Shown here piece by piece: positions 11,926-51,041 of a stretch of DNA of 51,041 nucleotides. The notes beneath the pieces were generated by a model, which saw only the letters and a program-made list of their open reading frames with translations, made no database searches and was not told the origin of the DNA. Location: positions 1-51,041 of the forward strand of contig WFSI01000033.1 in NCBI GenBank assembly GCA_015486105.1, given 5' to 3'. A program made the position numbers and the translations under genes. Every line of letters starts with the position of its first letter. Within the stretch, counting starts at the first letter, position 1. Source of the stretch: Aquificota bacterium. Lineage in GTDB: Bacteria > Thermosulfidibacterota > Thermosulfidibacteria > Thermosulfidibacterales > B14-G1.

Positions 11926-11933
11926 GGCCAGGG

Positions 11934-11962: not shown

Positions 11963-12043
11963 GGAGAGGGTATAGTTTCCAGTTGAGCAAACCCTCTACC
12001 AATGCTAAATTTAATAAACCAAGTTCAGGATCGGAGGTGAAGT

Positions 12044-12733: not shown

Positions 12734-12838
12734 CCTGAAATGTCGAGGAGGGAGCGATTTAGGTCGTTCCCTCCCTTAATCTGTGAATTTTAGGGGGCTG
12801 TGGGAAAGGCCCCGAAGAGGGATTCTGTGGGCGGGAAT

Positions 12839-34862: not shown

Positions 34863-34924
34863 GATTTATATTATATCACTATAAAGGCTTGCCATTCCAT
34901 CCCTCATCCCTTTATCATTCAATT

Positions 34925-35803
34925 ATGGCTAATTTAAGGAGCATGACCGGATACGGCAAAGGAGAAAGTCAAGGGAAAGATGTCAGGGTGGAAGTAGAAG
35001 TTAAAAGTGTCAACCACCGGTTCTTGGAAATCTCCCCCCGACTTCCCCGCTCCCTCATGGCCCTTGAGCCCAGAATAAGGGAAAAGGTAATGGAGACGTG
35101 CCACCGGGGAAAGGTAGACACCCTTTTCACTATCATCCCTTTGAAAGAAGGGTACTTGGAAGTTGAAGTCGACCTAGAAAAGGCCCTAGCCCTATGGAAA
35201 GGCATGGAGACCTTGGCGGGAAAACTGGGGCGGGAAGGGGAACTCCACCTCTCCCACCTTTTGACCCATCAGGACATTTTACTCATCAAGGAGAAAAAAC
35301 AGGATCTTCAAGCCCTCTGGCAGGTAATAGAGGCAGCCCTGGACAAGGCCTTGAAAAACCTAATAACGGAGAGGGAACGGGAGGGAGAAAACTTGAAAAA
35401 GGACCTGCTTAAGCACCTGGAAAACATGGGGCATCTTCTCAAAGAGATCGCCCAAAGGGCCCCAGATCTCCCTCAGCTTTACAGGGCCAAATTGGAGAAA
35501 CGCCTCCAAGAACTCCAGGTGGAAGTGCCTCCCGAAAGACTGGCCCAAGAAGTAGCTATCATAGCCGACAAAACCGACTTAACAGAAGAGCTGGTAAGGC
35601 TAAAGACCCACCTTGAGGAACTGGAAAAGACCTTGGAGGAAGGGTCCCCTTGTGGAAAGAAAATGGATTTTCTGGCCCAAGAATCCCTAAGAGAGAGCAA
35701 CACCATAGCCTCTAAAGCCCAAGATGTCCAGATTGCCCACTTAGTGGTAGAGGTCAAAGGAGAAATTGAAAAAATCAGGGAGCAGATCCAGAATATAGAG
35801 TGA
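34925..35803 (+). CDS. yicC: YicC-family stress-induced protein
   Basis: ORF 34889..35803 with the family N-terminus MANLRSMTGYG, giving a start at ATG 34925. It has a coiled-coil centre and a conserved C-terminal EIEKIREQIQNIE. Confidence 0.85.
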   Translation: MANLRSMTGYGKGESQGKDVRVEVEVKSVNHRFLEISPRLPRSLMALEPRIREKVMETCHRGKVDTLFTIIPLKEGYLEVEVDLEKALALWKGMETLAGKLGREGELHLSHLLTHQDILLIKEKKQDLQALWQVIEAALDKALKNLITEREREGENLKKDLLKHLENMGHLLKEIAQRAPDLPQLYRAKLEKRLQELQVEVPPERLAQEVAIIADKTDLTEELVRLKTHLEELEKTLEEGSPCGKKMDFLAQESLRESNTIASKAQDVQIAHLVVEVKGEIEKIREQIQNIE

Positions 35804-36405
35804 TGAAAATAAAGAGACGAGGCATACTCTTTGTGGTCTCTGCCCCATCAGGGGCAGGGAAAACCACCCTTTGCCGAGAGGCAATGAAGAAACTGAAAGG
35901 AGTGGCCTTTTCCATATCCTATACCACTCGCCCAGCTAGGCCTGGAGAAAGGGAAGGGGTGGACTACAGATTTGTGAAAGAAGAGACCTTTCTGGAGATG
36001 GTAGAGAAGGGGGAAATAGCAGAATGGGCCAGGGTCTACGATCACCTATACGGTACCCCTTTGCCCCCCTTAAACCAGGCCATTGAAAAAGGAGAAGACC
36101 TGTTTCTCGACATAGACATACAGGGAGCCTCCCAGATCAAGGCCAAATTCCCTGATGATACAGTGGCCATCTATGTCTTTCCCCCTTCCCTCAAAACCCT
36201 AAGAGAAAGGCTCACCCACAGGGACACCGATCCTACACCGGAGATTAAAAAACGATGGGAGAAAGCAGAAGAGGAAATAGCCATGTACCCTTTTTTTCAC
36301 TATTTCATAGTCAATGACAACTTGGAAGAAGCCGTGGAATATCTTGCTAACATTGTCAATGCCGAACGCCACAGGATAAACCGCATCCAGGAGCTGAAAT
36401 GGTAA
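35800..36405 (+). CDS. gmk: guanylate kinase
   Basis: 201 aa with the P-loop SAPSGAGKTT and TTRPARPGEREGVDY. Confidence 0.92.
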   Translation: MMKIKRRGILFVVSAPSGAGKTTLCREAMKKLKGVAFSISYTTRPARPGEREGVDYRFVKEETFLEMVEKGEIAEWARVYDHLYGTPLPPLNQAIEKGEDLFLDIDIQGASQIKAKFPDDTVAIYVFPPSLKTLRERLTHRDTDPTPEIKKRWEKAEEEIAMYPFFHYFIVNDNLEEAVEYLANIVNAERHRINRIQELKW

Positions 36406-37274
36406 CCCTCCTGGAACGCTACAGAGATTACCTCCTCCATGAAAAAGGCTATTCTCCCCACACGATAAGGAACTATTCGAGAGATATAGGCGAGCTACAA
36501 GGATTCCTAAGGGAAAGGGAGATAGAAATCGCTCAAGTCTCCTCTTGGGACCTAAGAAACTATCTCCTATACTGCAAGAGAAGGGGTTTGGCCTCCACTA
36601 GCCTTGCCAGGAGGGTTGCTTCCATCAGGAGCTTCTATGCCTTCCTTAAATCCCAAGAGATCATAAATGGCAACCCTGCCAGGTTACTCCGGACCCCAAA
36701 AAAGAGGAAACCCCTCCCCCGAATACTCTCCCAAAGGGAAACCACCAAACTCCTGGATAGAAGCTCCACGAACTCCCGAGACAAAGCCATCCTCGAGGTT
36801 CTTTATGCCACTGGCATTAGAGTTTCGGAACTGGTGGGACTCAACTTAGAGGATATAGACCTGGCTCAAGGTCAGATAAGGGTTATGGGAAAAGGCAAGA
36901 AAGAGAGAATAACACTAATGGGCACCAAGGCCATAGAAGCCCTTAAAGTCTATCTCAAGGAGAGAAGTATCTATGAGAAAAGGGGGGACAAGGCCCTCTT
37001 CGTCACCCCAAGGGGCAGGATGTCCGACACCACAGTCAGAAGGATCATCAAAAAGGCATCCATCACCTCAGGGCTGGGAAAGCCCGTCACCCCCCACACC
37101 TTCCGCCACTCCTTCGCCACCCACCTATTAGAAAGGGGAGCCGATCTCAGGTCCCTCCAGGAACTTCTGGGCCACGTCAACCTCTCTACCACCCAGATCT
37201 ACACCCACCTCACCAGAAAGCGACTAAAGGAGATTTACAACAAGGCCCATCCCCGGGCCAGGAGGAAAAGTTGA
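36399..37274 (+). CDS. xerC: site-specific tyrosine recombinase
   Basis: 291 aa with the same catalytic signature ([37 protein letters not shown]). It lies immediately upstream of hslVU, the conserved xerC(codV)-hslV-hslU arrangement. Confidence 0.82.
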
Positions 37275-37810
37275 TGGAAGAAATAACCAGAACCACTATC
37301 GTAGCTGTAAGAAAAGGGAGCAAAATAGCAGTAGCAGGAGACGGTCAGGTCACTCTGGGCAACACCGTTCTCAAAGCCAAAGCCAAAAAGGTGAGAAAAA
37401 TTTACAAAGACAAGGTAATAGTGGGATTTGCAGGAGCATCGGCCGATGCTTTCACCCTCATGATGCGCCTGGAAGAAAAACTGGAAGCCTACAGCGGAAA
37501 CTTGGCCCGGGCAGCCGTAGAGCTGGCCCGGGACTGGAGGACAGACAGAGTTCTTAGACGCCTAGAAGCCTTCCTTGTAGCCGCAGACGAAGAGAGATCT
37601 TTCCTCATCTCAGGCACAGGAGACGTAATAGAGCCCGATGACGGTCTCATGGCCATTGGTTCAGGTGGACCTTATGCCTTAGCAGCCGCCCGGGCCCTTA
37701 TAACCCATACCGACTTAAACCCCAAAAAAATAGCCTTGGAAGCTCTAAGAATCGCTTCAAGCATCTGCATATACACCAACCAAGAAGTCTTGGTAGAGGA
37801 GCTGGGATAA
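37271..37810 (+). CDS. hslV: ATP-dependent protease subunit HslV
   Basis: 179 aa with the N-terminal nucleophile region TTIVAVRKG and the GSGGPYA motif. Confidence 0.93.
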
Positions 37811-39168
37811 TGGAATGCCTGACCCCCAAAGAAATAGTAGAGTCCTTAGACAGATTTATTATAGGCCAGGAAGAAGCCAAAAAGGCTGTAGCCATAGCCT
37901 TAAGAAACAGATGGAGACGGCAGCAGCTCCCTCCCCATTTAAAGGAAGAGGTCCTGCCCAAGAATATCATCATGATGGGGCCCACAGGGGTAGGGAAAAC
38001 AGAAATTGCCCGGAGACTGGCCCGCTTAGCCAAAGCCCCCTTTATCAAGGTGGAGGCATCCAAGTTCACGGAAGTGGGCTACGTAGGAAGAGATGTAGAG
38101 TCTATCATCAGGGACCTCACCAAACTAGCCGTTCAGATGATCAAAAGGGAAGCCACAGAGCAAGTTCAAACAAAAGCCAAAGCCAATGCCGAGGAAAGAC
38201 TTTTAGACATCCTCTTGCCACCTCCCCCCGTAGAAAAGAAGACCCACGCCCTTACCCCCCAAGAAGAGGAGGCCCGGGAGCAGCACAAAAGGACCAGAGA
38301 AAAACTGAGGGAGATGCTGAAACAGGGAAAGTTAGATGACAGAGCAGTCGAGATAGAAACGGAAGAAAAGGGATCCAGTGCCGCCATAGAGGTAATTAGT
38401 TCTTCAGGCCTTGAGGACATGGATATCAACTTTCGGGACCTCTTAGGAAACCTCTTCCCCAAGAAGTACAAGAAGAGGAGAGTGAAAGTCCCCGAGGCAC
38501 TGGACATTTTCACAGAGGAAGAGGCCCAACGCCTCATCGATATGGATCAGGTGGTGAAGGAAGCCATAAAACGGGTAGAAAACTCGGGGATAGTGTTCTT
38601 GGATGAGATAGACAAAATAGCCGGCCGAGAGGGAGGCCATGGGCCCGACGTCTCCCGGGAAGGGGTTCAGAGGGACCTTTTGCCCATCGTGGAAGGCACA
38701 ACGGTAGCCACAAAATACGGGATGGTCCGGACAGACCATATTCTATTCATAGCAGCAGGGGCCTTCCACGTGTCCAAACCCTCGGATCTTATACCTGAGC
38801 TCCAGGGACGGTTCCCTATTCGGGTAGAGTTGAAGAGCCTCACCAAACAGGACTTCATCAGGATTCTCACCGAGCCAGAAAACGCCCTTATCAAACAGTA
38901 CAAAGCCCTCATGGAAACCGAAGGGATTCGCTTAAAATGTATGCCAGAGGCCGTGGAAGAAGTGGCAGACATCTCAGTTAGGCTAAACGAGAAGATGGAA
39001 AACATCGGAGCCAGGAGACTGTACACCGTCATGGAAAAGGTTTTGGAAGATCTCTCCTTCCATGCCCCGGATATGGGAGGAAAGGAAATCGCCATTGATG
39101 TCGCCTATGTAAGGGAAAGGCTAGAATCCATCATAAAAGACGAGGATCTAAGTAGGTATATCCTTTAG
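37810..39168 (+). CDS. hslU: ATP-dependent protease ATPase subunit HslU
   Basis: 452 aa with LTPKEIV, Walker A ([15 protein letters not shown]), Walker B ([10 protein letters not shown]) and an I-domain insertion. Confidence 0.94.
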
Positions 39169-39204
39169 ATCATATGAATTATATTAAAACCGGGAGGCGG
39201 AAAG

Positions 39205-40086
39205 ATGAACCTTACACCCAAGATCATGGAGACTATGCAGACGGGAATGGCACAAAAGATCCTCATAGTGCCCAAATCCCCTATGCTACTACGAATTGGC
39301 AGAATCACCAGCCCATTGGATCCTTATACCGTCTCTCCTCAAGACGTAAAGGACACCCTAAGCGGCCTTGCCACCATAGCCAACTATCAAATAGTGGTAG
39401 GATCAGGTAAGATCAGCAACGGCACCTTCACCCTCTCCACCCACGACGTAGGTAGGCTCCGGGTAAACTTCATTATCCAAAGGGGTACACCTGTGATCTT
39501 TGTAGAGAGGGTCCCTTCCCAAATACCCTCCATCAATGAACGGATACCCCAAGTGGAAGTGAAAAGGAGACTCGTAGGCCTATTGGAAGCCGAGACAGGC
39601 ATCATCCTCTTCACGGGAAACGATGCAGAAGAAACGGCAGAGGTAGTATACGCCGTTCTGAAAAACATCAACGACAACGAAAACAAGATCCTATGCACCG
39701 TAGAGAAACCCCTGAGGTACATCCTCAACAATAAAAAATCCGTGGTGATCCAAAGGGAGGTGGGCGTAGATGTGGATAGCGTGGCCCACGGTATAAACCA
39801 GAGCAGCTTCTTAAAAGCTGATATCCTTTACATCAGCGACATCCCCGACAAAAAATCTCTCGACGAACTCATCCAGGTTGCCAACAAGAGGACCCTATGC
39901 TTAGTGATGTTCCCTTCGTGGTCCCCTTCCCTGGCCATCAAGTCCCTCCAACACCTCCATGGATCCCCAGACCTATTTTCCCAGGTGGTCAAAGAACTCC
40001 TGCTGGGAGTGATCCACCTAGGGGAAAAAGGAGCAATGACCCTGTACACCCAAGAAGACAAAGAGGCCTTGCTTCATGGGGCTTGA
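39205..40086 (+). CDS. PilT/GspE-like protein with degenerate ATPase motifs (probable pseudo-ATPase)
   Basis: 293 aa, collinear with PilT (GRLRVNFIIQRG, VPSQIPS, VVIQREVGVD). Walker A reads GNDAEETA, the Asp box reads EKP, Walker B reads DILYISDIPD, and the His box reads KRTLCLVMFPS. Confidence 0.6.
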   Translation: MNLTPKIMETMQTGMAQKILIVPKSPMLLRIGRITSPLDPYTVSPQDVKDTLSGLATIANYQIVVGSGKISNGTFTLSTHDVGRLRVNFIIQRGTPVIFVERVPSQIPSINERIPQVEVKRRLVGLLEAETGIILFTGNDAEETAEVVYAVLKNINDNENKILCTVEKPLRYILNNKKSVVIQREVGVDVDSVAHGINQSSFLKADILYISDIPDKKSLDELIQVANKRTLCLVMFPSWSPSLAIKSLQHLHGSPDLFSQVVKELLLGVIHLGEKGAMTLYTQEDKEALLHGA

Positions 40087-40753
40087 ATCCACCATCCAGC
40101 AGATTGCCCTGGCTGCTCCTCCCCTCCTCTTCTCCATCACCTGTCACGAGGTCTCCCATGGGTATGTGGCCTACCGCTTGGGAGACCCTACAGCCAAAGA
40201 AGCAGGAAGGCTCACCCTCAACCCCCTGAAGCACTTGGATCCCTTAGGGCTCCTGGTATTTGTGGTGACCCGCTTCATCGGATGGGCAAAACCTGTGCCT
40301 GTAAATCCCTGGAACCTGAAAGACCCCATAAAGGGCATGATGTGGGTGGCCCTGGCAGGACCCACCACCAACTTCCTCTTGGCCATTACCCTGGCTATCC
40401 CCTTTCAGCTCCTCTACAGGACGGACCCCATCCTCTCCAGATACCTCATTGTCTTCTTCCGCACGGGCCGCATACCTCCCCTGGAAGGCATCCATTACCT
40501 TTTAGTACCCCTATTTCTTATGATGGCCATGGGCATCATCATCAACGTCGCCCTGGGATTCTTCAACCTCCTGCCCATACCCCCTCTGGATGGAGGAAGG
40601 ATAGTAACAGGCCTCCTCCCCTCTTCCATGGCCAAGGAATACGCCCGAATAGAGCCTTACGGGCTAATTATTCTAGTGGTCTTCCTGGTTTTCGGGGGAT
40701 TCAAATTTATCTCCCCCCTTATCTGGAAGGTGGCCATCCTCCTCATGGGGTAA
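40076..40753 (+). CDS. M50-family (site-2 protease-like) membrane metallopeptidase
   Basis: 225 aa, polytopic, with the HEVSHG zinc motif in TM1 and a distal NLLPIPPLDGG motif. Confidence 0.85.
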   Translation: MGLESTIQQIALAAPPLLFSITCHEVSHGYVAYRLGDPTAKEAGRLTLNPLKHLDPLGLLVFVVTRFIGWAKPVPVNPWNLKDPIKGMMWVALAGPTTNFLLAITLAIPFQLLYRTDPILSRYLIVFFRTGRIPPLEGIHYLLVPLFLMMAMGIIINVALGFFNLLPIPPLDGGRIVTGLLPSSMAKEYARIEPYGLIILVVFLVFGGFKFISPLIWKVAILLMG

Positions 40754-41293
40754 ATGCCACTTGGCCATCTGATCCTTAAAACATCCAGGACAATAAGTAT
40801 GGCTCAAGAGGATGCCTAAGCTGCGCACAAAATACTGGGAAAGCCCTACCCATTCCCCCTTCTCGTCCTTCACCCTCCCACATACACAACACATAGGAAG
40901 AATGGTGCCCCCTCCTTTATATTTGAAGGAACCCTTCTTAAAGATCTCCCCAAGTCTGAAAAGAATTTCTTCTTCCTCCACAGGCTTAACCAAAAAGTCC
41001 CTACATCCCAGTCTCATGGATTCCACCACCCATTCCCAGGAAGCCCTCTCGGCAAGAACCATCACGTGAGGTCCATCCCATGGCCTCAGCACCTCCCTCA
41101 CCCAGCCCACACCCTCATCTCCCCTATCAAAGAGATCAAGAATGACCACATGGGGCTTGAAACCCTCTACTTCTGTAGAAGCCTGAGTAAGGGAATCGCA
41201 CACCCTCACCTGGTATCCACCTTCCTCCAAACAACGGGAAAGAAACTCCCTAAGGGTAGCCTCGCCATCCACAACGAGAACCCTACCCTTCAT
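40673..41293 (-). CDS. response regulator receiver domain with a Cys-rich C-terminal module
   Basis: ORF 40673..41314, with a likely start at ATG 41293. It has a receiver domain (RVLVVDGE...VVILDL...VLAERASW) and a C-terminal CCVCGRVKDEKGEWVGLSQYFVRSLGILLSHTYCPGC. The 3' end overlaps the convergent M50 gene by 81 nt. Confidence 0.75.
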   Translation of the reverse strand: MKGRVLVVDGEATLREFLSRCLEEGGYQVRVCDSLTQASTEVEGFKPHVVILDLFDRGDEGVGWVREVLRPWDGPHVMVLAERASWEWVVESMRLGCRDFLVKPVEEEEILFRLGEIFKKGSFKYKGGGTILPMCCVCGRVKDEKGEWVGLSQYFVRSLGILLSHTYCPGCFKDQMAKWHLPHEEDGHLPDKGGDKFESPENQEDH

Positions 41294-41473
41294 GAAACCC
41301 CTGGATAATACCACAAAACCTGGAGAACCCTAAAAGCACAATACAGCCCATCCTCTCTACCCTCTCCAATGACAAAAATCACGAAGCCTTCGAGGCCTCA
41401 TGATAGCGATAATATTTTGTATACAATTATGACCATAAAGTAAAGGGACAAATCAACAAAAAGATGGAGTCTA

Positions 41474-42334
41474 TCAAAGGAGAAAGCTGGTAAGGGTAAA
41501 AAGGAAGACTGACAAGCTTATATAGCCATTCATATTGAAAAAGGCCATGTCCAATTTGCTTAAATCCTTAGGCTTTATCAAGGAATGTTCATAGGTGAAA
41601 AGGACCAAGACTACAACCAATCCCAACCAATAGAACCACCCCATGTTGCACGCCCACCCTGCCCCTACCAATAACAAAAAGGTGAAACCATGGAAGAGGC
41701 GAGATAGATAGAGGGAAGGAGCCACTCCCAAGTACCGGGGAATGGAATAAAGGCCAAAGGACCTGTCAAAATCCACGTCCTGAAGGGCATAGAGAATGTC
41801 GAATCCCGCCACCCAGAAAAGAACAGCAAAACCCAGAAAAAGACCTGCAAGGTCTATCCTTCCCCTCACAGCTATCCACGCCCCCAAAGGGGCCATAGAG
41901 AGGGACAAACCCAACACCATATGGGAAGCCCAGGTGAAGCGCTTTGTGTAAGAGTAAAAAGCCGTGATAATCACGGCCACGGGGGAAAGCTTGAAACACA
42001 GGGGATTGAGCTGGTATGCAGCGAAGATCAAAAGGGCATACGATGCCAAAGAAAAGATAAAGACCTCCCTCTTGCCGAGCATCCCTCGGGGGATGGGCCT
42101 ATTCCGGGTTCGGGGATTGGCCGCATCAATGGTGGCATCAGCCCAACGATTGAAAGCCATGGCCCCCGACCTCGCCCCCAACATGGCCACACCTATCCAA
42201 AAAAGGACCCCAAGGGAAGGGATTCCCTGAGCCGCCATAAGGGCCCCTGTAAGGGCAAAAGGCAAGGCAAAAACCGTATGGGGAAGCTTCACCACCTCGG
42301 AAAAGAGCCTCAGCTTCTTCAAGACCCCTTCCAT
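41474..42334 (-). CDS. UbiA-family aromatic prenyltransferase (4-hydroxybenzoate polyprenyltransferase-like)
   Basis: 286 aa, polytopic, with the first Asp-rich motif NRWADATIDAANPRT and a second motif YALQDVDFD. Confidence 0.82.
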   Translation of the reverse strand: MEGVLKKLRLFSEVVKLPHTVFALPFALTGALMAAQGIPSLGVLFWIGVAMLGARSGAMAFNRWADATIDAANPRTRNRPIPRGMLGKREVFIFSLASYALLIFAAYQLNPLCFKLSPVAVIITAFYSYTKRFTWASHMVLGLSLSMAPLGAWIAVRGRIDLAGLFLGFAVLFWVAGFDILYALQDVDFDRSFGLYSIPRYLGVAPSLYLSRLFHGFTFLLLVGAGWACNMGWFYWLGLVVVLVLFTYEHSLIKPKDLSKLDMAFFNMNGYISLSVFLFTLTSFLL

Positions 42335-42816
42335 TTCTTCACCCCTATACCTTCTGAAGCAAGGGCCCTCTCAAGCCTTTCTCCATACTCATCAGAGGGA
42401 GGAGTAATACAAACCTCCCTCCTATCTCCATCTTTCACCTTAAAAAACAGCCTCCACCCCTGAGTAGAACTCCAAAACCCCTCCGCCTTCTCCCCCCACT
42501 CCACTACCACCACACCCTCTTCCCCTAAGCACTCCTCCAACCCCAGATCCCAGAGATCAACAGAACCTTCAAGGCGGTAAAGATCTACGTGATAAAGGGG
42601 GCACTTACCCTCATACTCATTAATCAAGGTGAAAGTAGGACTAACGATGGGCTCTTCTATAGCCAGGGCCCTGGCTACACCTTGGGTAAAGGTGGTCTTA
42701 CCCGCCCCTAAGTCCCCATCCAAAGCCAGGATACACCCCTGCCCTGCCACCTTCACTAAGGTTTCCCCCAAAAGCTGAGTCTGCCCAGGGCCTTCTGTAA
42801 CCAACTTAAGGATCAT
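42319..42816 (-). CDS. tsaE: tRNA t6A37 biosynthesis ATPase TsaE (YjeE)
   Basis: 165 aa with [13 protein letters not shown] and SPTFTL...HVDLYRL. Confidence 0.88.
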
Positions 42817-43730
42817 CCAGCAATAAGGGCGTAAAGAACGGCCATCCTCACCGCAACGCCATTAGTCACCTGATCCAATATCACGTTTCTGGGATAGTCA
42901 GACACCTCAGGAGAAAGTTCAACCCCCCAGTTCACCGGTCCTGGATGCATGACCATTAGATCCTCGGCTATTCTTCTTTTAAGTTTATCCATATTAAGGC
43001 CAAAATACTTGGAATACTCCCTCAAAGACGGAAAAAGGGGAGAAGTCTGTCTCTCCAGCTGAATCCTTAGCATAATCACCACATCCACCTCCTCCAGAAC
43101 CATGTCCACGGATGGAGCCACCGAGACACCCATAGACTCGATACTTGGAGGCATCATAGTGGGGGGCCCCACAGCAACCACATGGGCCCCCAATTTCACC
43201 AAGCCATGAATATCAGACCTGGCCACCCTGCTGTGAGTGATATCCCCCGCAACGGCAACCCTAAGCCCCTGGATTTTTCCCTTAACCTCCCTGATAGTAA
43301 AAAGGTCCAGAAGACCCTGGGTGGGGTGCTCGTGGGCTCCATCCCCAGCATTCACTACAGGGGCCTCCAAAACCCTGGAGAGATACCTGGATGCGCCAGA
43401 AGCCTTGTGCCTCACCACAACAGCGTCCACGCCCATAGCCTCTATATTTCGAGCTGTGTCTTTGAGGGTCTCTCCTTTGGTGAGACTGCTGGTTGCAGCA
43501 GAAAAGTTGACCACATCCGCCGATAGCCTCTTACCAGCCATCTCAAAAGACGTACGAGTCCGAGTGCTGGGCTCGAAAAAGAGGTTCACCACCGTCTTTC
43601 CCCTCAGGGTAGGCACCTTCCTGATATCCCGCGTAAGCACCTCCTTCATAGACTCAGCCGTATCCAAGAGATAAAGGATATCTTCCTTGGAAAGATCCGC
43701 CAAGGCCACCAGATCTTTACCCCGCAACAT
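42813..43730 (-). CDS. pyrB: aspartate carbamoyltransferase catalytic subunit
   Basis: ORF 42813..43769. Start chosen at MLRGKDLV (43730). It has the STRTR, HPTQ and HPGP motifs. Confidence 0.9.
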
Positions 43731-44286
43731 CCTCTTCCTCCACCAGAACCACCTTATCCTCCTCGTCAACCTCCCTCAGAAAGACCAGCACATTCTCATT
43801 GAGGGATGTGGGCACTACCCTCCCCACATAGTCAGGCTGGATAGGCAACTCCCTATGGCCCCTGTCCACCAAAACCGCTAGCTGGATGTTCTGGGGCCTA
43901 CCCAGATCCATGACAGCATCCAAGGCCGCCCGGGTAGTTCTGCCCGTAAAGATCACATCATCCACCAGCACCAGCCTTTTACCATCCAAAGGGAAGGGGA
44001 TTTCTGTTCTTCCTACCTTGGGATGCTGGGCTAAAAGACTGAGATCATCCCTGTAAAGGGTTATGTCCAGCACACCCATGGGCACCTTTTTACCCAAAAC
44101 CTTGGCTATCATATTTGCCATGCGGCGTGCCAGCACATCCCCCCTCCTCCTCACCCCAACCAGGGCCAAACCCTCTCCCCCCTTGCTCCTCTCCAAGAAC
44201 TCATGAACCATGCGCTTAAGGGTCCTTTCTATAGAATCCCCATTCATAAGAACCTTTTTAAATCTGAAATGCTGGGGAATTTCCAT
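43717..44286 (-). CDS. pyrR: bifunctional pyrimidine operon regulator / uracil phosphoribosyltransferase
   Basis: ORF 43717..44301 with the PRPP-binding loop [16 protein letters not shown] 44286 overlaps the ppiD stop by 1 nt; 44301 is an alternative start. Confidence 0.88.
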
Positions 44287-46133
44287 CACAGGGCCCCCCA
44301 AAGCCTCTCATTCATCTTCACCTCTACCCTGCTCCTTAAGTCCTTGAACCACTGATCCTCTAACTCCTTCCGCCTCCTGGACAAAAGAGCCTTCTCCACC
44401 TGGGGCCTAAGTTTCTCTATCACCCCTTCCTTGATCTCTTGTCTGTCCGCCACGGTAAAAACCACTATCCCCTTACCCTTCTTGGCCCAGGCGTATCCCC
44501 CCTTATCCAGATCAAAGGCCTTCTCGACAACCTGCCTCTCCCAGAGACCCGGAGCTGCCCGGCTGATGAAAGGCGAAACCTTGATCTCCACCCTGGATAT
44601 GCCCATGGCTTTCAAGGCCCCCTTCAAGCCCTTGGACTCAGCCTGCTTAGCAAGCCGCCCAGCCTTCTTGTAGAGAAGCTCCTGGGCCTTCTGAAGCCTG
44701 ACGGCCTTCTCCACCCGGTCCTTAACATCCTTCAAAGATGGGATATAGGAGGGCCTCTTCTCCAAAACCTTCAAGATATAAAAGCCCTCTTCGGTCCTGA
44801 CAATATCCGAAAAGGAACCCTCTGCCACTTCAAAGGCCACCTGGGCCAATTTGGGAGGTGACTTGGAGATTCCTTCCCCTTTTGAGAAGAAGGGAGATGT
44901 AACCACAGAGAGACCCAAGGCCTTGGCCACTTCCTCCATGGAGGAACCCCTTTTCAGCATTTGTCTGGCCCGGGCCGCATTTCTAAGGGCCTCTTTCCTA
45001 GCCGCCTCCCCCAAAAGGTGGTTTTCTATCACATCCTTCACTTCACTAAAGGGCTTTATCTCCCCTTCCTCTTTCTCCACAACCTTGAAAATCTTGAACT
45101 CCTTCCCCACCTTTACTGGCTTAGAAAGGGCTCCCTCCCCCAAGGGTGACACGGCTCGGGCAACGGTGGTAGGAAGAGAGGTAACCTCAACCCATCCCAT
45201 ATCTCCCCCCTTAGCAGCCAAAGGATCCCGAGAGTAACGCCGAGCCACCTCTGAAAACCTCTGGTTGCCAAGGGCTTTTTCTACCTTGTTCAAGTCCTTC
45301 TTGTCCCTAAGGGTAATGACCAACAGATGCACCTTGGGAGGAGCAGGAAAATCCTCCATATTCTCCTGGTAATACTTCTTCATATCCCCCTCTCCCACTT
45401 TCACCCTCTTCTTGAAATCCCCAATGAGAAAGGGAATGTAAGCAACCTTCACCTTCTCCGGAACCCTGAACTCCTCCTTGTGCTTCTGATAGTAAGGACC
45501 TAGATCGCCCTCCACCTCCACCTTGTCGGCGAAAAACCCAGGCGTGAGTTCGGCGTATCTGAGCTTTATCTTCTCCATCCCATAGAGGATCTCATCCCTC
45601 ACCTCCGCCGGAGAAACCACCGCACTATCCCTAACCATGGCCAGGACCTTCTCCTTCAACAGGGAAGCCTCTATATCCCCCTCGAACTCGGCGGGAGTTA
45701 GCCTGTTGAGCTGGAGGATCTGCTTGTACCTCTGGGGGTCAAACCTCCCATTGGTCTTGAAGGCCTCCATCTTGGATATCTCATCCACCACTTCCTGGGA
45801 GTAGACTTTGATGCCCTCCTTCTGAGCCACCACCTCTATTAGCTTGTCGTTGATAAGGTTATTCAGCACCTGCTCTTTGAGATGAATCCTTTTCATGAGG
45901 TCCTCGCTAAACTTGTCTTTGAACATCTTCCTGTAAAAATCATAAGCTCGGGCGTAAGACTTTCTGAACTCCATATATGTGATAACCCTATTACCCACAT
46001 GGGCCAGAGTGTCCTTACTACCCTTAAGCCCCCCTTTACCCCACACCAGAAAAATGGTCCCTATAAAAGCTGCCACCACGATCCAGAGGGCCACACTCAG
46101 AGATTTCATATTCTCTCTCATGGTCCTAAGCAT
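44286..46133 (-). CDS. ppiD: periplasmic chaperone PpiD-like (membrane-anchored parvulin-domain protein)
   Basis: ORF 44286..46166. It has an N-terminal TM anchor ([21 protein letters not shown]), a long SurA-N-like region and a parvulin core (GGDMGWV). Start chosen at ATG 46133. Confidence 0.8.
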
Positions 46134-46251
46134 ACCCTTTCCCCCTTCCCCTTTCTGTGCACCCATCTTTATACTCCAGAGACAATACCATCAAGGCCAA
46201 AGACCTCCAACCCATGGAGGGAAAAGAGCAATGCTCCTGGAGGTCTTGATC

Positions 46252-46280
46252 TTGACATGCCATGGAGGTGAATATATAAG
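46252..46280 (+). promoter_or_regulatory. sigma70-like promoter for the tRNA-Gly/tRNA-Cys pair
   Basis: TTGACA (46252..46257), a 17-nt spacer, then TATAAG (46275..46280). The -10 element ends 15 nt before the tRNA-Gly 5' end. Confidence 0.5.
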
Positions 46281-46295
46281 AACTTTCACCATTGA

Positions 46296-46370
46296 GCGGG
46301 AATAGCTCAGGGGTAGAGCACTGCCTTGCCAAGGCAGGGGTCGCGGGTTCAAATCCCGTTTCCCGCTCCA
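46296..46370 (+). tRNA. tRNA-Gly (anticodon GCC), encoded CCA
   Basis: Hand-folded 75-nt cloverleaf: GCGGGAA acceptor stem, anticodon stem CTGCC/GGCAG, loop TTGCCAA, and T-loop GGTTCAAATCC. Confidence 0.9.
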
Positions 46371-46380
46371 TTCTCTATCA

Positions 46381-46455
46381 GGCGGCATAGCCAAGTGGTA
46401 AGGCAGGGGACTGCAAATCCCTCATTCCCCGGTTCAAATCCGGGTGCCGCCTCCA
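46381..46455 (+). tRNA. tRNA-Cys (anticodon GCA), encoded CCA
   Basis: Hand-folded 75-nt cloverleaf: GGCGGCA acceptor stem, anticodon loop CUGCAAA, and T-arm CCCGG/CCGGG. Confidence 0.88.
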
Positions 46456-46500
46456 AGAAAATCAATAACTTACAAACCATAAAGCAAACCTCAAAATTGA

Positions 46501-46522
46501 AATTTCTAACATATTTCTAACA
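46501..46522. repeat. tandem 11-bp direct repeat (A/T)ATTTCTAACA x2 in the AT-rich tRNA-Cys 3' flank
   Basis: Read directly: aatttctaaca (46501..46511) then tatttctaaca (46512..46522). Confidence 0.7.
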
Positions 46523-46774
46523 AACTATCAGAAAACTCATCAATACCTTATTATTATAAGAACTCTGCAATTAGAGGATCTTTTATGATAATTCGTATAA
46601 TCCAATAAGTGAAAGCAGAGCTTAAAAGTAATTTTTCTCTTCCACCCCTTGAATGAAGTCGAGGGAGACATAGCCATTGTGATGGGCCAGAGCCAGGAGT
46701 GAAGCCCATTGGACCAAAGTATCCATCTGTTTCAGTGAAACTCCCCACCCATTCCAGGATCCAGAGAAAACTGG

Positions 46775-47026
46775 TTATCTTCCCGATGGAGTAGGTGAAC
46801 ACTTGGGAGTGAAATCACTGGGGAGTTTGGACTGGGGTGCGCGGGTTCCAGCGGTGACTCGAATTTCCGCTATAGTCCCAGCCGGGCTGCCACCTCCTCG
46901 TAGTCTGGAGCCTCGGCGTAGAGCTTTCGCCCCGCGCGGCCCGAGCGAGAGTGACCAGCCCGACTTGCTCAGGTTCAGTGTCACGCCCGGTGCGATTTTG
47001 ATTCTCCTCCAAAAACGAAAGCTCAT
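46775..47026 (-). CDS. DUF4236-like small protein (N-terminal motif only)
   Basis: 83-aa ORF. The first 35 aa (MSFRFWRRIKIAPGVTLNLSKSGWSLSLGPRGAKA) match the DUF4236 signature. The rest is Arg/Gly/Pro-rich and unlike the family. The start overlaps the upstream stop as ATGA. Confidence 0.5.
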   Translation of the reverse strand: MSFRFWRRIKIAPGVTLNLSKSGWSLSLGPRGAKALRRGSRLRGGGSPAGTIAEIRVTAGTRAPQSKLPSDFTPKCSPTPSGR

Positions 47027-47805
47027 AATCCGCCTCCCTTCGCCGCTTGCAGGCTTTCTGTGCGGAGCATGATTAAATCTTGGTCTAGGCCCTGCCGGAG
47101 CACATCTAGACGATGGGAAACTGCTACCAGCTGCTCTGTGGAAATGGGTCTCAAGCGAAACGGGAAAAGACTTGGCGACTCAAAGGCTGCTCTCAATGTA
47201 ATTGAACCGTTGGGTCGAGAGTACAATAAAGCCTCGGCCAACCAAGCGATAAGCTCCACTCGAGCTATGTGTAGTGAAAGCCCAGCGGTATAGAAGCCTT
47301 TTCCCGACGTATCTTTTAAGACACCCCAATCTACGAAGCTCCGCAGCACCCGGCGTGTTGCTCTATACACCGTTTCGCGTTCCCCATATTGCTCCCGCAC
47401 ACGGCGCTGTACCTGGCTAGCCGCAGCCATTCCCTGAAGCCTGAGCAATCGCCCCACATGAGCCGCTACAGCTCCCCAGAAAGGATATACCGCCATAGCC
47501 ATACCCCAATGGACTGCGATATGATCTTCCCGAGGCAGTTGTGAGAGAAGTTCGAGGCCTTCATGCTGAAGAGAATGAAGGTCGCGCGGGGGACGGACCC
47601 AGATCTTCATTAGGATGGTGATCGCCTTCTCCCGATTGCCACGTTGGGCCTCCCCACCCACGGAAAGCTTCTCTTCGAGCAATTCTTGGAGGGCACTGTA
47701 AATAGAAGCCACGTCGTTCCCGGCAAGCACCAGATTGGCAGTTCTCTCCAACCATTCAAGACGAATGCGCTGGCTGAAACCGATCTGGGTTAGGCGATTG
47801 TTCAT
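47023..47805 (-). CDS. 260-aa helical protein in the brxA position of a BREX-like cluster (function unknown)
   Basis: Clean ORF that is ATGA-coupled to genes on both sides. It is helical with a C-terminal winged-helix-like stretch (RVLRSFVDWGVLKDTSGKGFY). The BrxA/DUF1819 assignment rests on position and vague resemblance only. Confidence 0.4.
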   Translation of the reverse strand: MNNRLTQIGFSQRIRLEWLERTANLVLAGNDVASIYSALQELLEEKLSVGGEAQRGNREKAITILMKIWVRPPRDLHSLQHEGLELLSQLPREDHIAVHWGMAMAVYPFWGAVAAHVGRLLRLQGMAAASQVQRRVREQYGERETVYRATRRVLRSFVDWGVLKDTSGKGFYTAGLSLHIARVELIAWLAEALLYSRPNGSITLRAAFESPSLFPFRLRPISTEQLVAVSHRLDVLRQGLDQDLIMLRTESLQAAKGGGL

Positions 47806-49811
47806 CGGGCACTCCTATAAATCTGGACATAAGGAACGAGCAGTTCCTCTAAACTAATGCCTCCGTGACAAACAAGGACTTCGCTTTTTCTTACAAAAGC
47901 AACCCGGTTCGGAGCGATAAGGGCGAAATACTCTTCTGGGAGGCCAACAGGTGGCCACTCCAAAGAATCAGGAAATCGCTCTTTTACTTGAGCCCTGAGT
48001 ATGGGGTCGGAGTAGACACGCACGCGTTGTCCACGGAGGTCGGCAACAGCCCCCTCTTTAGGTTGCCCTATGCCTTTCGCCTCGATATTGCCATGGTCCG
48101 AGGCAAGATAAACTTGAAAACCCCAATCATGGAGAAGACCAAGAAGGTTCCGCAAGAATCCTTGCCTAACCCATTGCCGAACCTGGTTATGCATACCTGC
48201 GGTACCTAGTTCCATGCCGTGCATAATCCGGTCAACCTTGTCTATTACCAGTCCTACGATGCGTAGTTTAGGTAGACTCAGCAGCTCGGAAACTTGATCC
48301 AGGTCTCCATCGCCCAGCCCTTTGGCATAAGCCACCTCATTTGCACTAAGACCCCTGTCAGCCCAGAACTGGGCCCAGAGACCGGGTTCCTTGTTTGTAG
48401 TATGGATACTCTCAGGGAAATAGAAGGGGATCTTGCCGGAGAAAGCAGCCTGCCTGGAGACTGAGGTGATGGTAGGAATCCAGGAAAAGAGCACTTCTTC
48501 ACGGAATCGCAAATTTGGATCCAGCTCCCCAAGCTCCTCCTTCAAGATAACCCATTGGTCTAGGGCAAGGCCATCCACCAGAAGAAAAGCAAGTTTTGAG
48601 CCTCGGTCCCTGAGTATTGAGTAGGCGAAAAATCGAGGAAGGTGATGGAGCATGATGGGCTTTGTAGCTGGGAGATTGATAAGACTTGCGTAGTGCTTGG
48701 TTACCCATTTCAAGAATCGCGTGTCCACCTGGACCGTGAGCTCCTCGACCCTTTCGCACAATTTCTCCTTTTCTTCACCCAACGCCCAGTCCTCGGTACT
48801 CAGCACTTTGAGCTGTGCCCATCGATAGGCGAATTTGAGCCACTCCTCATAACGCGCCTCCACTTCGGGGATGGTTTCCCCTATAGAATCCAACAGCCCC
48901 CTAAAACGGCGAAGGCGGTTTTCCATTGGAGAGATTTTGATGCCATAGGCTACCCAGCTCTTGGCAAGATCCTCGGCTTGCGGATGAGGAACAGGTTGAA
49001 GCAGGCCCTCCAGGAAGAGATTGTCGATATAAACGCGAACGTCGTCGTGGTCAAAAGGCAAAAGTGCAGGTCCTGGGAACTCGAAGTCGTAGCGCGAGGT
49101 GTCCTCATGAACGGCACCGTCCTTTGGCTTTGCCATTGAGTCAAGGAACGCCGACCAGCGTTCTTGCAAGAACGCGAAAAAGGCTTGCGCATCTGGAACA
49201 ATGGCTTCTAAAGGCCAATCCTGGAATAGGCCACTTTGGCGAAGGACCTGGATAAAGCGCTCGTCGAGGGTGGCTGGAATTCTAATGCCTCGGTAATGGC
49301 GGCGTAGCAAGACCCGGAGCAAGTCTGAAGGCGTCTTTATGAGTTCAGGAGCGATTTCAAACACGTGGCGAAGAACAAAATCCTTAGTGGCATTATCGCC
49401 AAGAGGCCCTGGGTTGAACCTTTCCTGGGCATCGTACAGTGCATCTAGATAGGCCCGGTCAAGTGCTGCGATGACGGGATAACTAAGGTTCGGGAAGAGA
49501 TCACCCAGGTTGAAGGAGAGCTTGCGCCCTGCCTGGAGCAAGTCGTAGGGCAAGGAATGGAGATCGTTGGAGGGCGATCTCAACACGACCACCAAGTCTG
49601 TCTCCTCTCCCCGGTCCCAACGGGAGCGAAACCTGGATTCGTAGGCATAGCGAAAAGTGATGTGATCCTCGAATGGGATCAGCTCAAACCCCCTTTCTCG
49701 GATCCCTTGGAGGATATCTTCTTCAAGGAGTAGACCGTCTGGGTCCGCGACCAGGGTAAGCCGAGCAACCTGGGGTGTAAACTCACCAAGGATCTGGTCA
49801 CGCCAACTCAT
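47802..49811 (-). CDS. pglZ: PglZ-domain protein (alkaline-phosphatase fold, BREX component)
   Basis: 669 aa. The C-terminal half has the PglZ signatures LAFLLVDGLALDQW, PTITSVSRQAAFSG, YLASDHGN and VCHGGISLEELLVPYVQI. Confidence 0.8.
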   Translation of the reverse strand: MSWRDQILGEFTPQVARLTLVADPDGLLLEEDILQGIRERGFELIPFEDHITFRYAYESRFRSRWDRGEETDLVVVLRSPSNDLHSLPYDLLQAGRKLSFNLGDLFPNLSYPVIAALDRAYLDALYDAQERFNPGPLGDNATKDFVLRHVFEIAPELIKTPSDLLRVLLRRHYRGIRIPATLDERFIQVLRQSGLFQDWPLEAIVPDAQAFFAFLQERWSAFLDSMAKPKDGAVHEDTSRYDFEFPGPALLPFDHDDVRVYIDNLFLEGLLQPVPHPQAEDLAKSWVAYGIKISPMENRLRRFRGLLDSIGETIPEVEARYEEWLKFAYRWAQLKVLSTEDWALGEEKEKLCERVEELTVQVDTRFLKWVTKHYASLINLPATKPIMLHHLPRFFAYSILRDRGSKLAFLLVDGLALDQWVILKEELGELDPNLRFREEVLFSWIPTITSVSRQAAFSGKIPFYFPESIHTTNKEPGLWAQFWADRGLSANEVAYAKGLGDGDLDQVSELLSLPKLRIVGLVIDKVDRIMHGMELGTAGMHNQVRQWVRQGFLRNLLGLLHDWGFQVYLASDHGNIEAKGIGQPKEGAVADLRGQRVRVYSDPILRAQVKERFPDSLEWPPVGLPEEYFALIAPNRVAFVRKSEVLVCHGGISLEELLVPYVQIYRSAR

Positions 49812-50506
49812 CGCTCTTCACCGAGCAAATCCCATGGCGTTACAATCCCAAGTGGACGTTCCTTAGACTTGCCACTTTCTGTTATAAGGATGGCCTGGAG
49901 GCGGGGAATGCCTCTGCCAATAGCTTTCTCAAACATCTCGAAAGCTGCATCCAATGGATCGTTCCGTGACAAGTATCGACATATTCCCCTTTCTTCAAAA
50001 GCCAAAGCGTCGACTACAGTAGCTTCTTCAAGATCTGCGAGACCTACATCACGAGCGTCTTCTAACCATTTTACGATGCCTTCCGATGAAAGTAGAACAT
50101 ATTCGCCTTCATGATCTACCACCACCTGTGAGAAGTCGTTCTCTTTCATAAAGCTTATACAATCGGTGAGAGAGTCTTCGTCGGTAAATATACGGATAGC
50201 TCTCTGGAATTTGGGGATGAGCTTCGGTGGCCTTGCAATTGATTTAAGCACAGATTCCAATTCTTGAACTACTTCGGGTCGAGGATCGGCCAAAATCGTC
50301 TCGGGATAACAGCGATCGTGGACAATTGCGTTTCGCAATTGTCCTATACTCAAAAGGATCTCTTTACGTCTACGCACAGTGACGTCCTTTTGGGCTGCAA
50401 ATTCAACAACGGCAGTGAAGGACTTGTCCCTCTCAAGGCCAGTTCTCTGGCGGAGCAAGTCGTCTAGTTCATTGAACTTCTGGACAAACAGATCACCGCT
50501 TCTCAT
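49808..50506 (-). CDS. HEPN-like (R-x4-H) N-terminal domain fused to a CBS-domain pair
   Basis: 232 aa. The N-terminal roughly 95 aa are helical with SIGQLRNAIVHD (RNAIVH = R-x4-H). Two CBS-like repeats follow (IRIFTDEDSL...FSQVVVDHEGEYVLLSSEGIVKWL, and RYLSRNDPL...QAILITESGKSKERPLGIVTPWDLL). Confidence 0.55.
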   Translation of the reverse strand: MRSGDLFVQKFNELDDLLRQRTGLERDKSFTAVVEFAAQKDVTVRRRKEILLSIGQLRNAIVHDRCYPETILADPRPEVVQELESVLKSIARPPKLIPKFQRAIRIFTDEDSLTDCISFMKENDFSQVVVDHEGEYVLLSSEGIVKWLEDARDVGLADLEEATVVDALAFEERGICRYLSRNDPLDAAFEMFEKAIGRGIPRLQAILITESGKSKERPLGIVTPWDLLGEER

Positions 50507-51041
50507 CTCTTTCCCTCTACTCGCACAAGGATCAGGGATACCATTTCCGGCAAGATCTGGGCCCTGCGCTCCAGTTGCTCTTTGAAGCGTTGTTCCTCCT
50601 GCTCTAAAAGCCTGAGTCGATAGTTACGGACCTGGGGCAGTCCGATGCGCTCGATGGCTCTGCATCGTGCAGCAAAGGCGTACTCGCCCTTTTCACGCTC
50701 CCGCGCAAGGCGCTCTTGGTGAGCCTGCACCAGCTCGTCGTAGATCGTCTTCCCCTGTTGTTCCGCCGCCTTCCGGAGTTGCTCGAAGGCTTGATGAGAG
50801 CTCTCGATGTCCAAATGCCGGAGGATCGTGGGGGAGGTGGTCAGCAGTTGATCCCAGATGTGCCGGGCAGTCGGCGCAAACACCCGACCATCGTCGGCCA
50901 GGAACAAAGGCAACACGCGCCGTTGGCGCGTGAGTGCTGAGCTTTGAGGACTGAGTGTTGAGTCAATCTGAATCGAAATTTCCCACAAGGACCAAAAGCC
51001 TCGTATCTCTGGGGCAAGGCCAGGAAGCGTGATGACCGGGA
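50503..51041 (-). CDS. C-terminal end of a large protein, probably an SNF2/COG0553-type helicase (BrxHII-like); 5'-truncated by the window edge
   Basis: I translated past the listed TTG and the frame stays open to position 51041. The tail (LPLFLADDGRVFAPTARHIWDQLL ... ERIGLPQVRNYRLRLLEQEEQRFKEQLERRAQILPEMVSLILVRV) resembles, from memory, the C-terminal domain of helicases encoded next to pglZ. No helicase motif lies inside the window. Confidence 0.4.
   Translation of the reverse strand, partial: PVITLPGLAPEIRGFWSLWEISIQIDSTLSPQSSALTRQRRVLPLFLADDGRVFAPTARHIWDQLLTTSPTILRHLDIESSHQAFEQLRKAAEQQGKTIYDELVQAHQERLAREREKGEYAFAARCRAIERIGLPQVRNYRLRLLEQEEQRFKEQLERRAQILPEMVSLILVRVEGKR

Follow-up and report, generated by a model that had tools for sequence, protein, structure and literature searches.

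A putative HEPN-CBS gene cassette at the brxHII-pglZ junction of a BREX type 3 cluster end in a Thermosulfidibacter-like chromosome

Bacteriophage exclusion (BREX) systems are widespread; to our knowledge, how they stop phage is not settled, and type 3 counts among the least studied types. The type 3 operon is reportedly laid out as brxF-brxC-pglXI-brxHII-pglZ-brxA (Goldfarb et al. 2015). Here, we analyzed contig WFSI01000033.1, a stretch of 51,041 bp (hereafter the window) that is one entire metagenomic contig ending at position 51041, and found at this end what appears to be the 3′ part of a BREX type 3 cluster, in which a gene for a predicted HEPN-CBS protein lies between brxHII and pglZ. 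The locus is a new combination of parts each already described and not a new kind of system. Anantharaman et al. 2013 (PMC3710099) reported HEPN genes within Pgl operons and also HEPN-CBS fusions, for which they proposed nucleotide-sensing control of RNA stability. According to a 2026 BREX survey in Nucleic Acids Research (NAR, PMC12839542), HEPN, Schlafen, PIN, PD-(D/E)XK, HNH, and OLD genes are embedded in BREX loci and are seen as auxiliary or backup suicidal effectors. Its main text and accessible supplements make no mention of CBS or DUF4236, and a constant brxHII-pglZ slot whose junctions overlap and whose cassette borders are clean is described neither there nor in the accessible portion of PMC3710099. 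The same two domain types are joined in DS-11 (WP_000257686.1, Escherichia coli; DefensePredictor, Science 2026, PMC13092281), a validated one-protein CBS+HEPN anti-phage defense that works alone and whose protection is abolished by Y157A in the CBS part and by R330A/H335A in the HEPN part. The explanation that we favor for the present locus, and hold to be likely, is that the window ends in the acquired, promoter-distal end of a BREX type 3 operon with a HEPN-CBS cassette at the brxHII-pglZ junction, and that this cassette would act as a ligand-gated second-line effector.

Five co-oriented open reading frames (ORFs) lie on the minus strand at the contig end: 50503 to 51041 (open at the edge), 49808 to 50506, 47802 to 49811, 47023 to 47805, and 46775 to 47026. 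An earlier reading of the window from its sequence only (the sequence-only reading) had listed the same five and taken them for one translationally coupled operon carrying the 3′ end of a BREX type 3 cluster. When read on the coding (minus) strand, ATGA start/stop overlaps are present at all four junctions, which supports one tightly coupled operon. The largest complete ORF (47802 to 49811) encodes a 669-residue phosphatase-family PglZ of the BREX type 3 kind, matching the NCBIfam model NF033449 (BREX_PglZ_3) with 878.6 bits against a cutoff of 250 and over profile positions 1 to 641 of 642, the PADLOC model PDLC02558 with 1053 bits, and Pfam PglZ at 1.4e-25; this exact PglZ was found on no other recorded contig. 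Directly downstream, with a 4-nucleotide (nt) overlap, lies brxA in its BREX type 3 variant (47023 to 47805, minus strand, 260 residues), which matches PADLOC PDLC02444 (E 2.9e-115, covering 1 to 250 of 251), has no match in Pfam or NCBIfam, and follows pglZ in all related loci. The ORF cut by the contig end (50503 to 51041, minus strand) holds what are predicted to be the C-terminal 178 codons of brxHII, which would encode a SNF2-type helicase with its core past the contig end; it matches positions 764 to 931 of 933 of the PADLOC BrxHI/BrxHII model PDLC02500 (E 4.2e-63), is 77% identical to the C terminus of a 948-residue SNF2/ResIII/Helicase_C protein in the homologous locus L167, and also matches the C terminus of a full-length SNF2 helicase in L003. 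The full layout in the homologous loci L003, L009, and L167 is BrxC-PglXI-(accessory genes)-BrxHII-X-PglZ-BrxA, with BrxC and PglXI present in L003 and L009 and PglXI present in L167 and L169. Taken together, the profile searches support a prediction of the visible block, ordered brxHII-[extra]-pglZ-brxA, as the 3′-terminal part of a BREX type 3 cluster, and uphold the earlier call for the part that can be seen. The block resembles BREX type 3 in a pglZ product scoring far over the subtype cutoff and in the order and co-orientation of brxHII-(X)-pglZ-brxA, and differs from it in that only the 3′ end is present, with an extra HEPN-CBS gene and a decayed DUF4236-family remnant after brxA. Two further observations concern BrxHII in other loci. 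In five BREX type 3 PglZ loci that extend more than 5 kb upstream (L113, L114, L141, L151, and L165), tblastn detected no BrxHII; these loci may have another gene order or a very divergent helicase. The BrxHII of L169 (6745 to 10014) is 1089 residues long with a Pfam match to the GIY-YIG nuclease, which suggests a helicase-nuclease fusion variant.

The extra gene between brxHII and pglZ (49808 to 50506, minus strand) encodes 232 residues, and from the window itself it had seemed to belong to no BREX layout and to be an oddity of this locus. Comparison with other loci gives a different picture, that of a recurrent cassette in the same slot in several phyla. The gene is absent from L087 and L088, two BREX type 3 loci whose PglZ is 78% identical to that of the window; their DNA aligns with the window to the end of brxHII at up to 90% identity and picks up again where pglZ begins, at its first codons, with ~700 nt of the window left unmatched. 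At the level of DNA alignment, the predicted HEPN-CBS gene is shown by this to be a discrete cassette of ~700 nt in the brxHII-pglZ junction, a clean indel. A homolog of its product is encoded in the same slot in seven other BREX type 3 loci, namely L167 (78% identity), L168 (67%; a metagenome-assembled genome, or MAG, labeled Bacteroidetes), L169 (64%), L003 (54%; Krumholzibacteriota), L009 (52%; Desulfobacteraceae), L010 (52%; Desulfobacterales), and L127 (35%). Overlaps of 4 nt are found at all three junctions in L009 and L010, and in the other loci that bear the gene the junctions overlap or abut at other lengths.

How the slot is filled was then read from an unbiased sample of 80 metagenome BREX type 3 PglZ loci, chosen without reference to the HEPN-CBS gene, 69 of which have a BrxHII detectable upstream. 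The brxHII gene abuts pglZ in 47 of these 69 loci, and the other 22 carry an insert, which is the HEPN-CBS gene in one and other accessory genes in 21. The inserts that could be identified include 23S_rRNA_IVP/bAvd-like four-helix proteins, a PDDEXK_3 nuclease, SIR2_2 proteins of 1150 to 1270 residues, a 1051-residue sacsin-domain protein, and a protein combining Schlafen/AlbA_2 with HATPase_c_4. Given inserts this varied in 22 of 69 loci, the brxHII-pglZ junction is a general accessory slot of which the HEPN-CBS gene is one uncommon occupant. The sacsin-domain protein is that of L160 (6847 to 10002), where a Pfam Sacsin (SACS) match fills the slot. The locus is like the embedded effectors of the published BREX and Pgl surveys (PMC12839542, PMC3710099) in having a HEPN-type gene inside the core operon with BREX genes on both sides, and two of the effector classes listed in PMC12839542, PD-(D/E)XK and Schlafen, are found in this same slot elsewhere, as are the large SIR2_2 proteins. 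It is unlike them in the architecture of the effector, since those surveys list standalone HEPN proteins or HEPN-MNT fusions and the gene described here would encode HEPN-CBS. A second accessory hotspot was seen at the pglXI-brxHII junction (L003 5260 to 7219, L009 4248 to 7213, L167 3742 to 5604, L168 358 to 1883, and L169 3482 to 6748), containing either AAA_15/AAA_21 ATPases with DUF4276, DUF3696, or unknown partners (OLD/Gabija-like) or SIR2_2 with DUF87 and 23S_rRNA_IVP; in L003, a YhcG-like nuclease gene is also found between brxC and pglXI.

The domain assignment of the 232-residue protein was examined by motif, profile, and structure prediction. Its layout consists of an N-terminal HEPN-like helical bundle (residues 1 to 91) and a C-terminal CBS pair (residues ~100 to 230). 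In a family alignment of 39 homologs, R58, N59, and H63 (R58-N59-A-I-V-H63, within LRNAIVH) are invariant in all 39, corresponding to the RNxxxH form of the HEPN Rx4-6H motif. The AlphaFold2 model of the whole protein has a mean predicted local distance difference test (pLDDT) score of 90.3 and places a five-helix bundle (residues 3 to 91; helices 3-22, 30-40, 42-46, 48-61, and 77-91, pLDDT 84 to 90) ahead of the CBS pair. Profile comparison of the N-terminal part with the PDB returned the HepT HEPN toxin (5yep, 6m6w) with E values of 0.006 to 0.009, and the alignment lays the family segment LRNaivHd on LRNiavHd of HepT, the segment that holds the RNxxxH motif of HepT. Among the 39 members, Pfam HEPN_RiboL-PSP matches 14 (best E 1.3e-4), HEPN_Apea matches 4, and HepT-like matches 3; the protein of the window itself has no Pfam HEPN match at E≤0.1. 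In a whole-protein fold search, the matches were dominated by the CBS pair. With a model of the N-terminal part only, the best Foldseek matches were HepT (6m6w, 5yep) and the sacsin HEPN domain (3o10), all weak (E 1.3 to 5.5, TM-score ~0.5), and a direct phmmer search of the protein against the PDB gave chance annexin matches only.

In the C-terminal half, two tandem CBS motifs of the beta-alpha-beta-beta-alpha pair fold were recognized. Pfam CBS matches it in two stretches with 34.6 bits (cutoff 24), and Foldseek aligns it with probability 1.0 to the adenine-nucleotide-binding CBS pairs of AMPK-gamma, CcpN, CbpB, AcuB, MJ0100, and others, with TM-scores, normalized by target length, of 0.6 to 0.76. 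In the second CBS repeat, G220-I-V-T223-P-W-D226 is nearly invariant in the family, and its pattern G-h-h-T-x-x-D is presumably the typical ribose-binding signature of CBS domains. Family position 125 is always aromatic, being F in 25 and Y in 14 of the 39 members. We therefore accept the protein as a predicted HEPN domain fused to a CBS pair, the HEPN half being assigned from an invariant motif together with weak, mutually consistent profile matches, in agreement with the HEPN-like/CBS label proposed from sequence. The protein is probably a ribonuclease (RNase), and its predicted CBS pair may, on indirect evidence, bind an adenosine ligand.

Two of the closest described systems share some features with this protein and differ from it in others. 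For DS-11, the sequence was taken from the supplement of PMC13092281 and compared by hhalign. The two CBS pairs align (family residues 107 to 231 with DS-11 residues 139 to 243, probability 92%, E 6e-7), the counterpart of the ATP-contacting DS-11 residue Y157 is family position 125, and R330 and H335 correspond to R58 and H63; the HEPN halves of the family and of DS-11 do not align significantly (E 0.11). DS-11 thus shares the two domain types, an alignable CBS pair, and counterparts of Y157, R330, and H335 in F/Y125, R58, and H63, and standalone relatives of the window gene are single-gene modules as DS-11 is. In contrast, DS-11 runs N-terminal extension-CBS-HEPN over 365 residues as opposed to HEPN-CBS over 232, its HEPN domain is Swt1/SAV2148-like while that of the window is nearest to RiboL-PSP/HepT, and DS-11 is not reported inside BREX. 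Orthology was rejected, as the CBS pair alone aligns and the domain order is reversed; with dissimilar HEPN halves as well, DS-11 is best seen as a functional analog. The HepT/MntA type VII toxin-antitoxin system (PDB 5yep, 6m6w) supplies the best profile and structural match of the N-terminal domain, with an aligned Rx4H motif and small helical bundles in both. The similarity is nonetheless weak (E 0.006; Foldseek E>1), no MNT antitoxin partner accompanies the present gene, and HepT is controlled by AMPylation, whereas here a fused CBS pair would exert control.

We then considered where the block sits. The rest of the window is ordinary chromosome, encoding HemA, Mfd, Rho, IspG, GuaA, HslU, and Alr. 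Its Rho is 92% identical to MAG proteins labeled Thermosulfidibacter takaii/Aquificota and 78% identical to that of the isolate T. takaii ABI70S6, and such protein identities mark the host as Thermosulfidibacter-like. T. takaii is a deep-sea hydrothermal-vent thermophile, and the host is probably one likewise. The sequence-only reading had described, by eye, an island next to a tRNA pair (46456 to 51041), with CpG-richer sequence and CGN arginine codons from about 46800. Both tRNAs were confirmed with ARAGORN and Rfam on the plus strand, tRNA-Gly (GCC) at 46296 to 46370 (Rfam tRNA 71 bits, kept in the relatives L170 to L172) and tRNA-Cys (GCA) at 46381 to 46455, and an Rfam search of the window found four tRNAs and nothing else. 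The rise in CpG and CGN also stood when computed. The CpG observed/expected ratio (o/e) is 0.85 in 46800 to 51041 and 0.38 in 1 to 46455, where host windows of 4.2 kb average 0.39 ± 0.035 with a maximum of 0.49; CGN makes up 0.76 of arginine codons in the block (0.62 to 0.81 per gene) and 0.33 in 43 host ORFs (0.12 to 0.60 per gene). A shift in GC content was ruled out as an island signal, as GC is flat over the boundary (0.51 versus 0.53), and the change is thus a dinucleotide and codon signature and not one of base composition. The CpG step is sharp and lies at ~46830 to 46840, not at 46456, the start given for the island, with just three CpG within 46456 to 46840, such that the foreign DNA starts ~375 bp past the end of tRNA-Cys. 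The foreign, CpG-normal block, all genes of which are on the minus strand, extends from 46831 to 51041 and past the contig end. Contigs of the host lineage have CpG o/e values of 0.38 to 0.47, and BREX type 3 loci of the other organisms checked have 0.9 to 1.1. The host lineage itself (window 1 to 46455; L170 to L172) is strongly CpG depleted at ~51% GC, AGG/AGA making up two-thirds of its arginine codons, with local CpG o/e bumps of 0.57 to 0.64 at 31001 to 32000 (guaA) and 38001 to 40000 (hslU and a PilT-like ATPase gene) that stay far under the level of the island.

Between tRNA-Cys and the foreign DNA lies a host-type, AT-rich, CpG-poor spacer of 369 bp (46462 to 46830) that is population specific, being present in the sister contig L170 and not in the relatives. 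A scan of this spacer returned one weak promoter-like site and no terminator-like site, convincing gene, or attachment (att) repeat. The sister contig L170 (ENA ERZ23495180 scaffold_106; 63,009 bp), from the same population in a different sample of the study, matches window positions 34286 to 46830 at 99.93% identity and ends at 46830, 10 bp ahead of the first CpG (46840) of the CpG-rich block, which suggests population heterogeneity at the island border. In blastn comparisons of two further relatives, L171 (70% PpiD identity) and L172 (86%, the closest), both alignments with the window end at 46461, 6 nt past tRNA-Cys. Beyond this break, L172 has a tRNA-Leu, an ADP-ribosylglycohydrolase gene, a CopG gene, and transposase fragments, and L171 has a gene for a 220-residue hypothetical protein followed by housekeeping genes, so that other DNA occupies the syntenic site and the locus is variable among relatives. 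The tRNA-Leu(TAA) of L172 (2746 to 2832) comes directly after tRNA-Cys and is missing from the window, and the synteny break therefore removes or replaces a tRNA gene. In L171, positions 1 to 1850 are homologous to window positions 12033 to 13940 yet located ~8 to 10 kb upstream from ppiD, across the tRNA-Gly/tRNA-Cys pair, a placement that suggests a rearrangement broken at the tRNA-Cys flank. Two Phage_integrase-family genes of the window (33978 to 34862, minus strand, and 36399 to 37274, plus strand), near hslV/hslU and a guanylate kinase gene, were considered as island integrases and rejected; as their arrangement beside hslVU is conserved in L171, they appear to be XerC/XerD-type housekeeping recombinases. 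The composition and the comparisons with relatives bear out the foreign character of the block and support its having been acquired, as judged from these sequences, in a recombination-prone, variable tRNA flank; the mode and recency of the acquisition are matters of interpretation, as is the term “mobile island.” The block is like tRNA-associated genomic islands in adjoining tRNA genes, in its deviant composition, in its absence from the syntenic site of relatives, and in its defense cargo, and unlike them in carrying no integrase or repeat of the tRNA 3′ end and in starting ~375 bp off the tRNA.

Under the explanation that we favor, BREX type 3 would provide a methylation-based first line of defense, and the HEPN-CBS protein would be co-expressed with it as a second-line effector. 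With the gene coupled between brxHII and pglZ, the protein would be made whenever BREX type 3 is made. In general, HEPN RNases work as dimers whose Rx4-6H site is composite, and CBS pairs dimerize and bind ligands that contain adenosine, which is also the reasoning applied to DS-11. An adenine-containing ligand in the CBS pair may thus restrain or activate a dimeric HEPN RNase, and a change of ligand during infection would lead to RNA cleavage and then to growth arrest or abortive infection.

Several observations weigh against this reading. BrxC, PglXI, and BrxF lie off the contig, and the completeness and activity of the system are therefore not visible. As for the effector, only 1 of the 69 unbiased BREX type 3 loci carries the HEPN-CBS gene, its HEPN half is called from a motif with subthreshold profile matches and Foldseek E values above 1, and no model in PADLOC, PHROGs, or NCBIfam matches the protein, the gap in PADLOC and PHROGs counting here. 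With regard to acquisition, no integrase was found at 46456 to 51041 in the ORF list or by Pfam, and no repeat of the tRNA-Cys 3′ end was found in 40000 to 51041, both absences having been noted already by the sequence-only reading for the window; the far border of the island lies beyond the contig end. Lastly, the family extends well outside BREX. A profile search of 1.84 billion representatives, clustered at 50% identity, returned 954 clusters at E≤1e-30, and among the 150 best matches listed most are full length at ~230 residues. In 80 genome loci, all homologs below ~45% identity are standalone and outside BREX, L127 excepted, in taxa including Chloroflexota and many Bacillota such as Neobacillus, Oceanobacillus, Bhargavaea, and Alkalibacterium. 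Closer homologs can be standalone as well, as in a Nitrospirae MAG (63%, L001) and a Kiritimatiellia MAG (53%, L008), and some non-BREX homologs are in ordinary housekeeping neighborhoods. Homologs outside BREX mean that a defense role for the whole family is not established. The Nitrospirae copy (MAG J017; L001/L007 2247 to 2945) is more similar to the window protein than are several BREX-embedded copies and has no BREX genes nearby, its neighbors being a UDG gene, a gene for an unknown 319-residue protein, and a His_Phos_1-like gene; the HEPN-CBS cassette apparently moves in and out of BREX. Beside the standalone homologs, no conserved partner or antitoxin was found beyond within-genus synteny, and with no common neighbor the HEPN-CBS protein is an autonomous single-gene module.

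These features of the family raise the alternative that the HEPN-CBS gene forms a single-gene module of a selfish or housekeeping kind, for example an addiction-type toxin or a stress-responsive RNase, that lodges in a permissive, co-transcribed junction of a defense island and acts independently of BREX. The standalone homologs without a conserved partner, some of them close and some in housekeeping contexts, the size of the family, a slot that takes many unrelated genes, and the fact that DS-11 acts alone (PMC13092281) all fit this view. However, of the distinct loci with at least 50% identity and a readable context, seven of nine have the gene in the exact BREX type 3 slot with overlapping or abutting junctions, these loci span Krumholzibacteriota, Desulfobacterota, a Bacteroidetes-labeled MAG, and the Thermosulfidibacter-like host, and even the 35%-identical member in L127 occupies the same slot. 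The same-slot loci suggest a repeated or long-maintained association with BREX type 3 and not chance lodging, one HEPN-CBS clade having been captured by BREX type 3 repeatedly or durably, and we regard full independence from BREX as unlikely. A stronger version of the association, in which the HEPN-CBS protein would be a ligand-gated fail-safe specific to BREX type 3 that fires its RNase when BREX is disarmed, is doubtful and put forward as speculation. The CBS pair would then monitor an adenine metabolite that BREX needs or that phages manipulate to escape BREX, for which S-adenosylmethionine (SAM), which the SAM lyases of phages deplete, ATP/AMP, or a signal produced by BrxHII/PglZ would be candidates. 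If true, it would tie a methylation-based defense directly, through a metabolite, to an effector of abortive infection and would offer a way into how BREX and its accessory genes communicate.

A different kind of doubt concerns the joint itself. The window could be an assembly chimera, in which a CpG-normal BREX fragment of another organism of the vent metagenome was misjoined at ~46830 and the island would be an artifact. The window is a metagenomic contig, the independent assembly of the population (L170) stops at precisely 46830, the foreign DNA that follows amounts to just 4.2 kb, the contig stopping within brxHII, and a similar CpG-normal BREX type 3 contig of another organism (L167) exists in the same study. 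No homology of the foreign genes was traced left of 46830, although the homology ends at ~46926 already and the trace is therefore uninformative. Against a misjoin, the joint falls outside any conserved repeat, and the tRNAs that would be the obvious source of shared k-mers are 375 bp off; the spacer (46462 to 46830) is contiguous with the host in two assemblies; relatives show a natural variable spot there with a transposase, toxin-antitoxin genes, or other DNA; and a contig break at the border of a strain-variable island is the usual result of real heterogeneity. Since the joint lies apart from the conserved tRNAs, at a site of natural variability, we consider a chimera improbable. That the block is instead ancestral, a long-resident defense locus at the tRNA site with a composition set by selection on its genes, is very improbable: the lack of an integrase or att repeat and a CpG o/e of 0.85, slightly below the 0.9 to 1.1 of other BREX type 3 loci and a possible hint of some amelioration, would agree with it, but relatives at 70% and 86% PpiD identity have no such block at the syntenic site, each host gene tested is under each island gene in CGN share with one borderline exception, and the lineage-wide CpG depletion (0.38 to 0.47) has barely touched the block.

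The last ORF of the block (46775 to 47026, 83 codons) had been taken for a DUF4236 gene trailing the operon. An intact gene was rejected, since the domain is incomplete and its 5′ and 3′ pieces are in different frames. Pfam DUF4236 covers profile positions 1 to 34 of 55 only. The 5′ remnant (46922 to 47026, minus strand) comprises the first ~35 codons of the gene, with a start that overlaps the brxA stop (ATGA), and these 35 codons are 83% identical to a DUF4236 protein in L102 that has the full domain (1 to 55 of 55) and a length of at least 112 residues; DNA homology to L102 ends at ~46926. The 3′ remnant (46873 to 46953, minus strand), in another frame, retains the native stop codon (46870 to 46872), as tblastn of the C terminus of an L108 ORF (12368 to 12733) against the window gave 67% identity over 27 residues (E 1.5e-4) with an identical stop position, the window ending in KLYAEAPDYEEVAARLGL and L108 in KLYAEDPDYEDVAARLGL, each directly followed by the stop. 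With both ends of a longer gene present, its middle has been deleted and the 83-residue ORF is a read-through of the deletion scar, its last 18 codons being in host-like DNA. In L102, the order downstream of BREX type 3 is brxA-SIR2_2-HerA(DUF87)-DUF4236, with 4-nt overlaps at brxA/SIR2_2 and HerA/DUF4236. L108 has a deletion derivative at 11172 to 12733, where a SIR2 N terminus is fused to other sequence. L102 (2343 to 7033), L108, and the window, with the shortest scar, look like a deletion series of one module. A DUF4236-family gene was found in no BREX type 3 locus examined besides these three.

The window and its seven relatives thus present a compact, translationally coupled pairing of BREX type 3 with what is predicted to be a small sensor-effector, with likely residues at hand for catalysis (R58, H63) and for the ligand site (F/Y125, T223, D226). 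At the brxHII-pglZ junction lies a cassette slot delimited precisely by start/stop overlaps, a finding useful to annotation pipelines because PADLOC has no model for the HEPN-CBS gene. The pairing is a simple test case for whether accessory effectors embedded in BREX cooperate with it or work on their own, and it would extend the CBS+HEPN defense principle of DS-11 to a second architecture represented by about a thousand sequence clusters.

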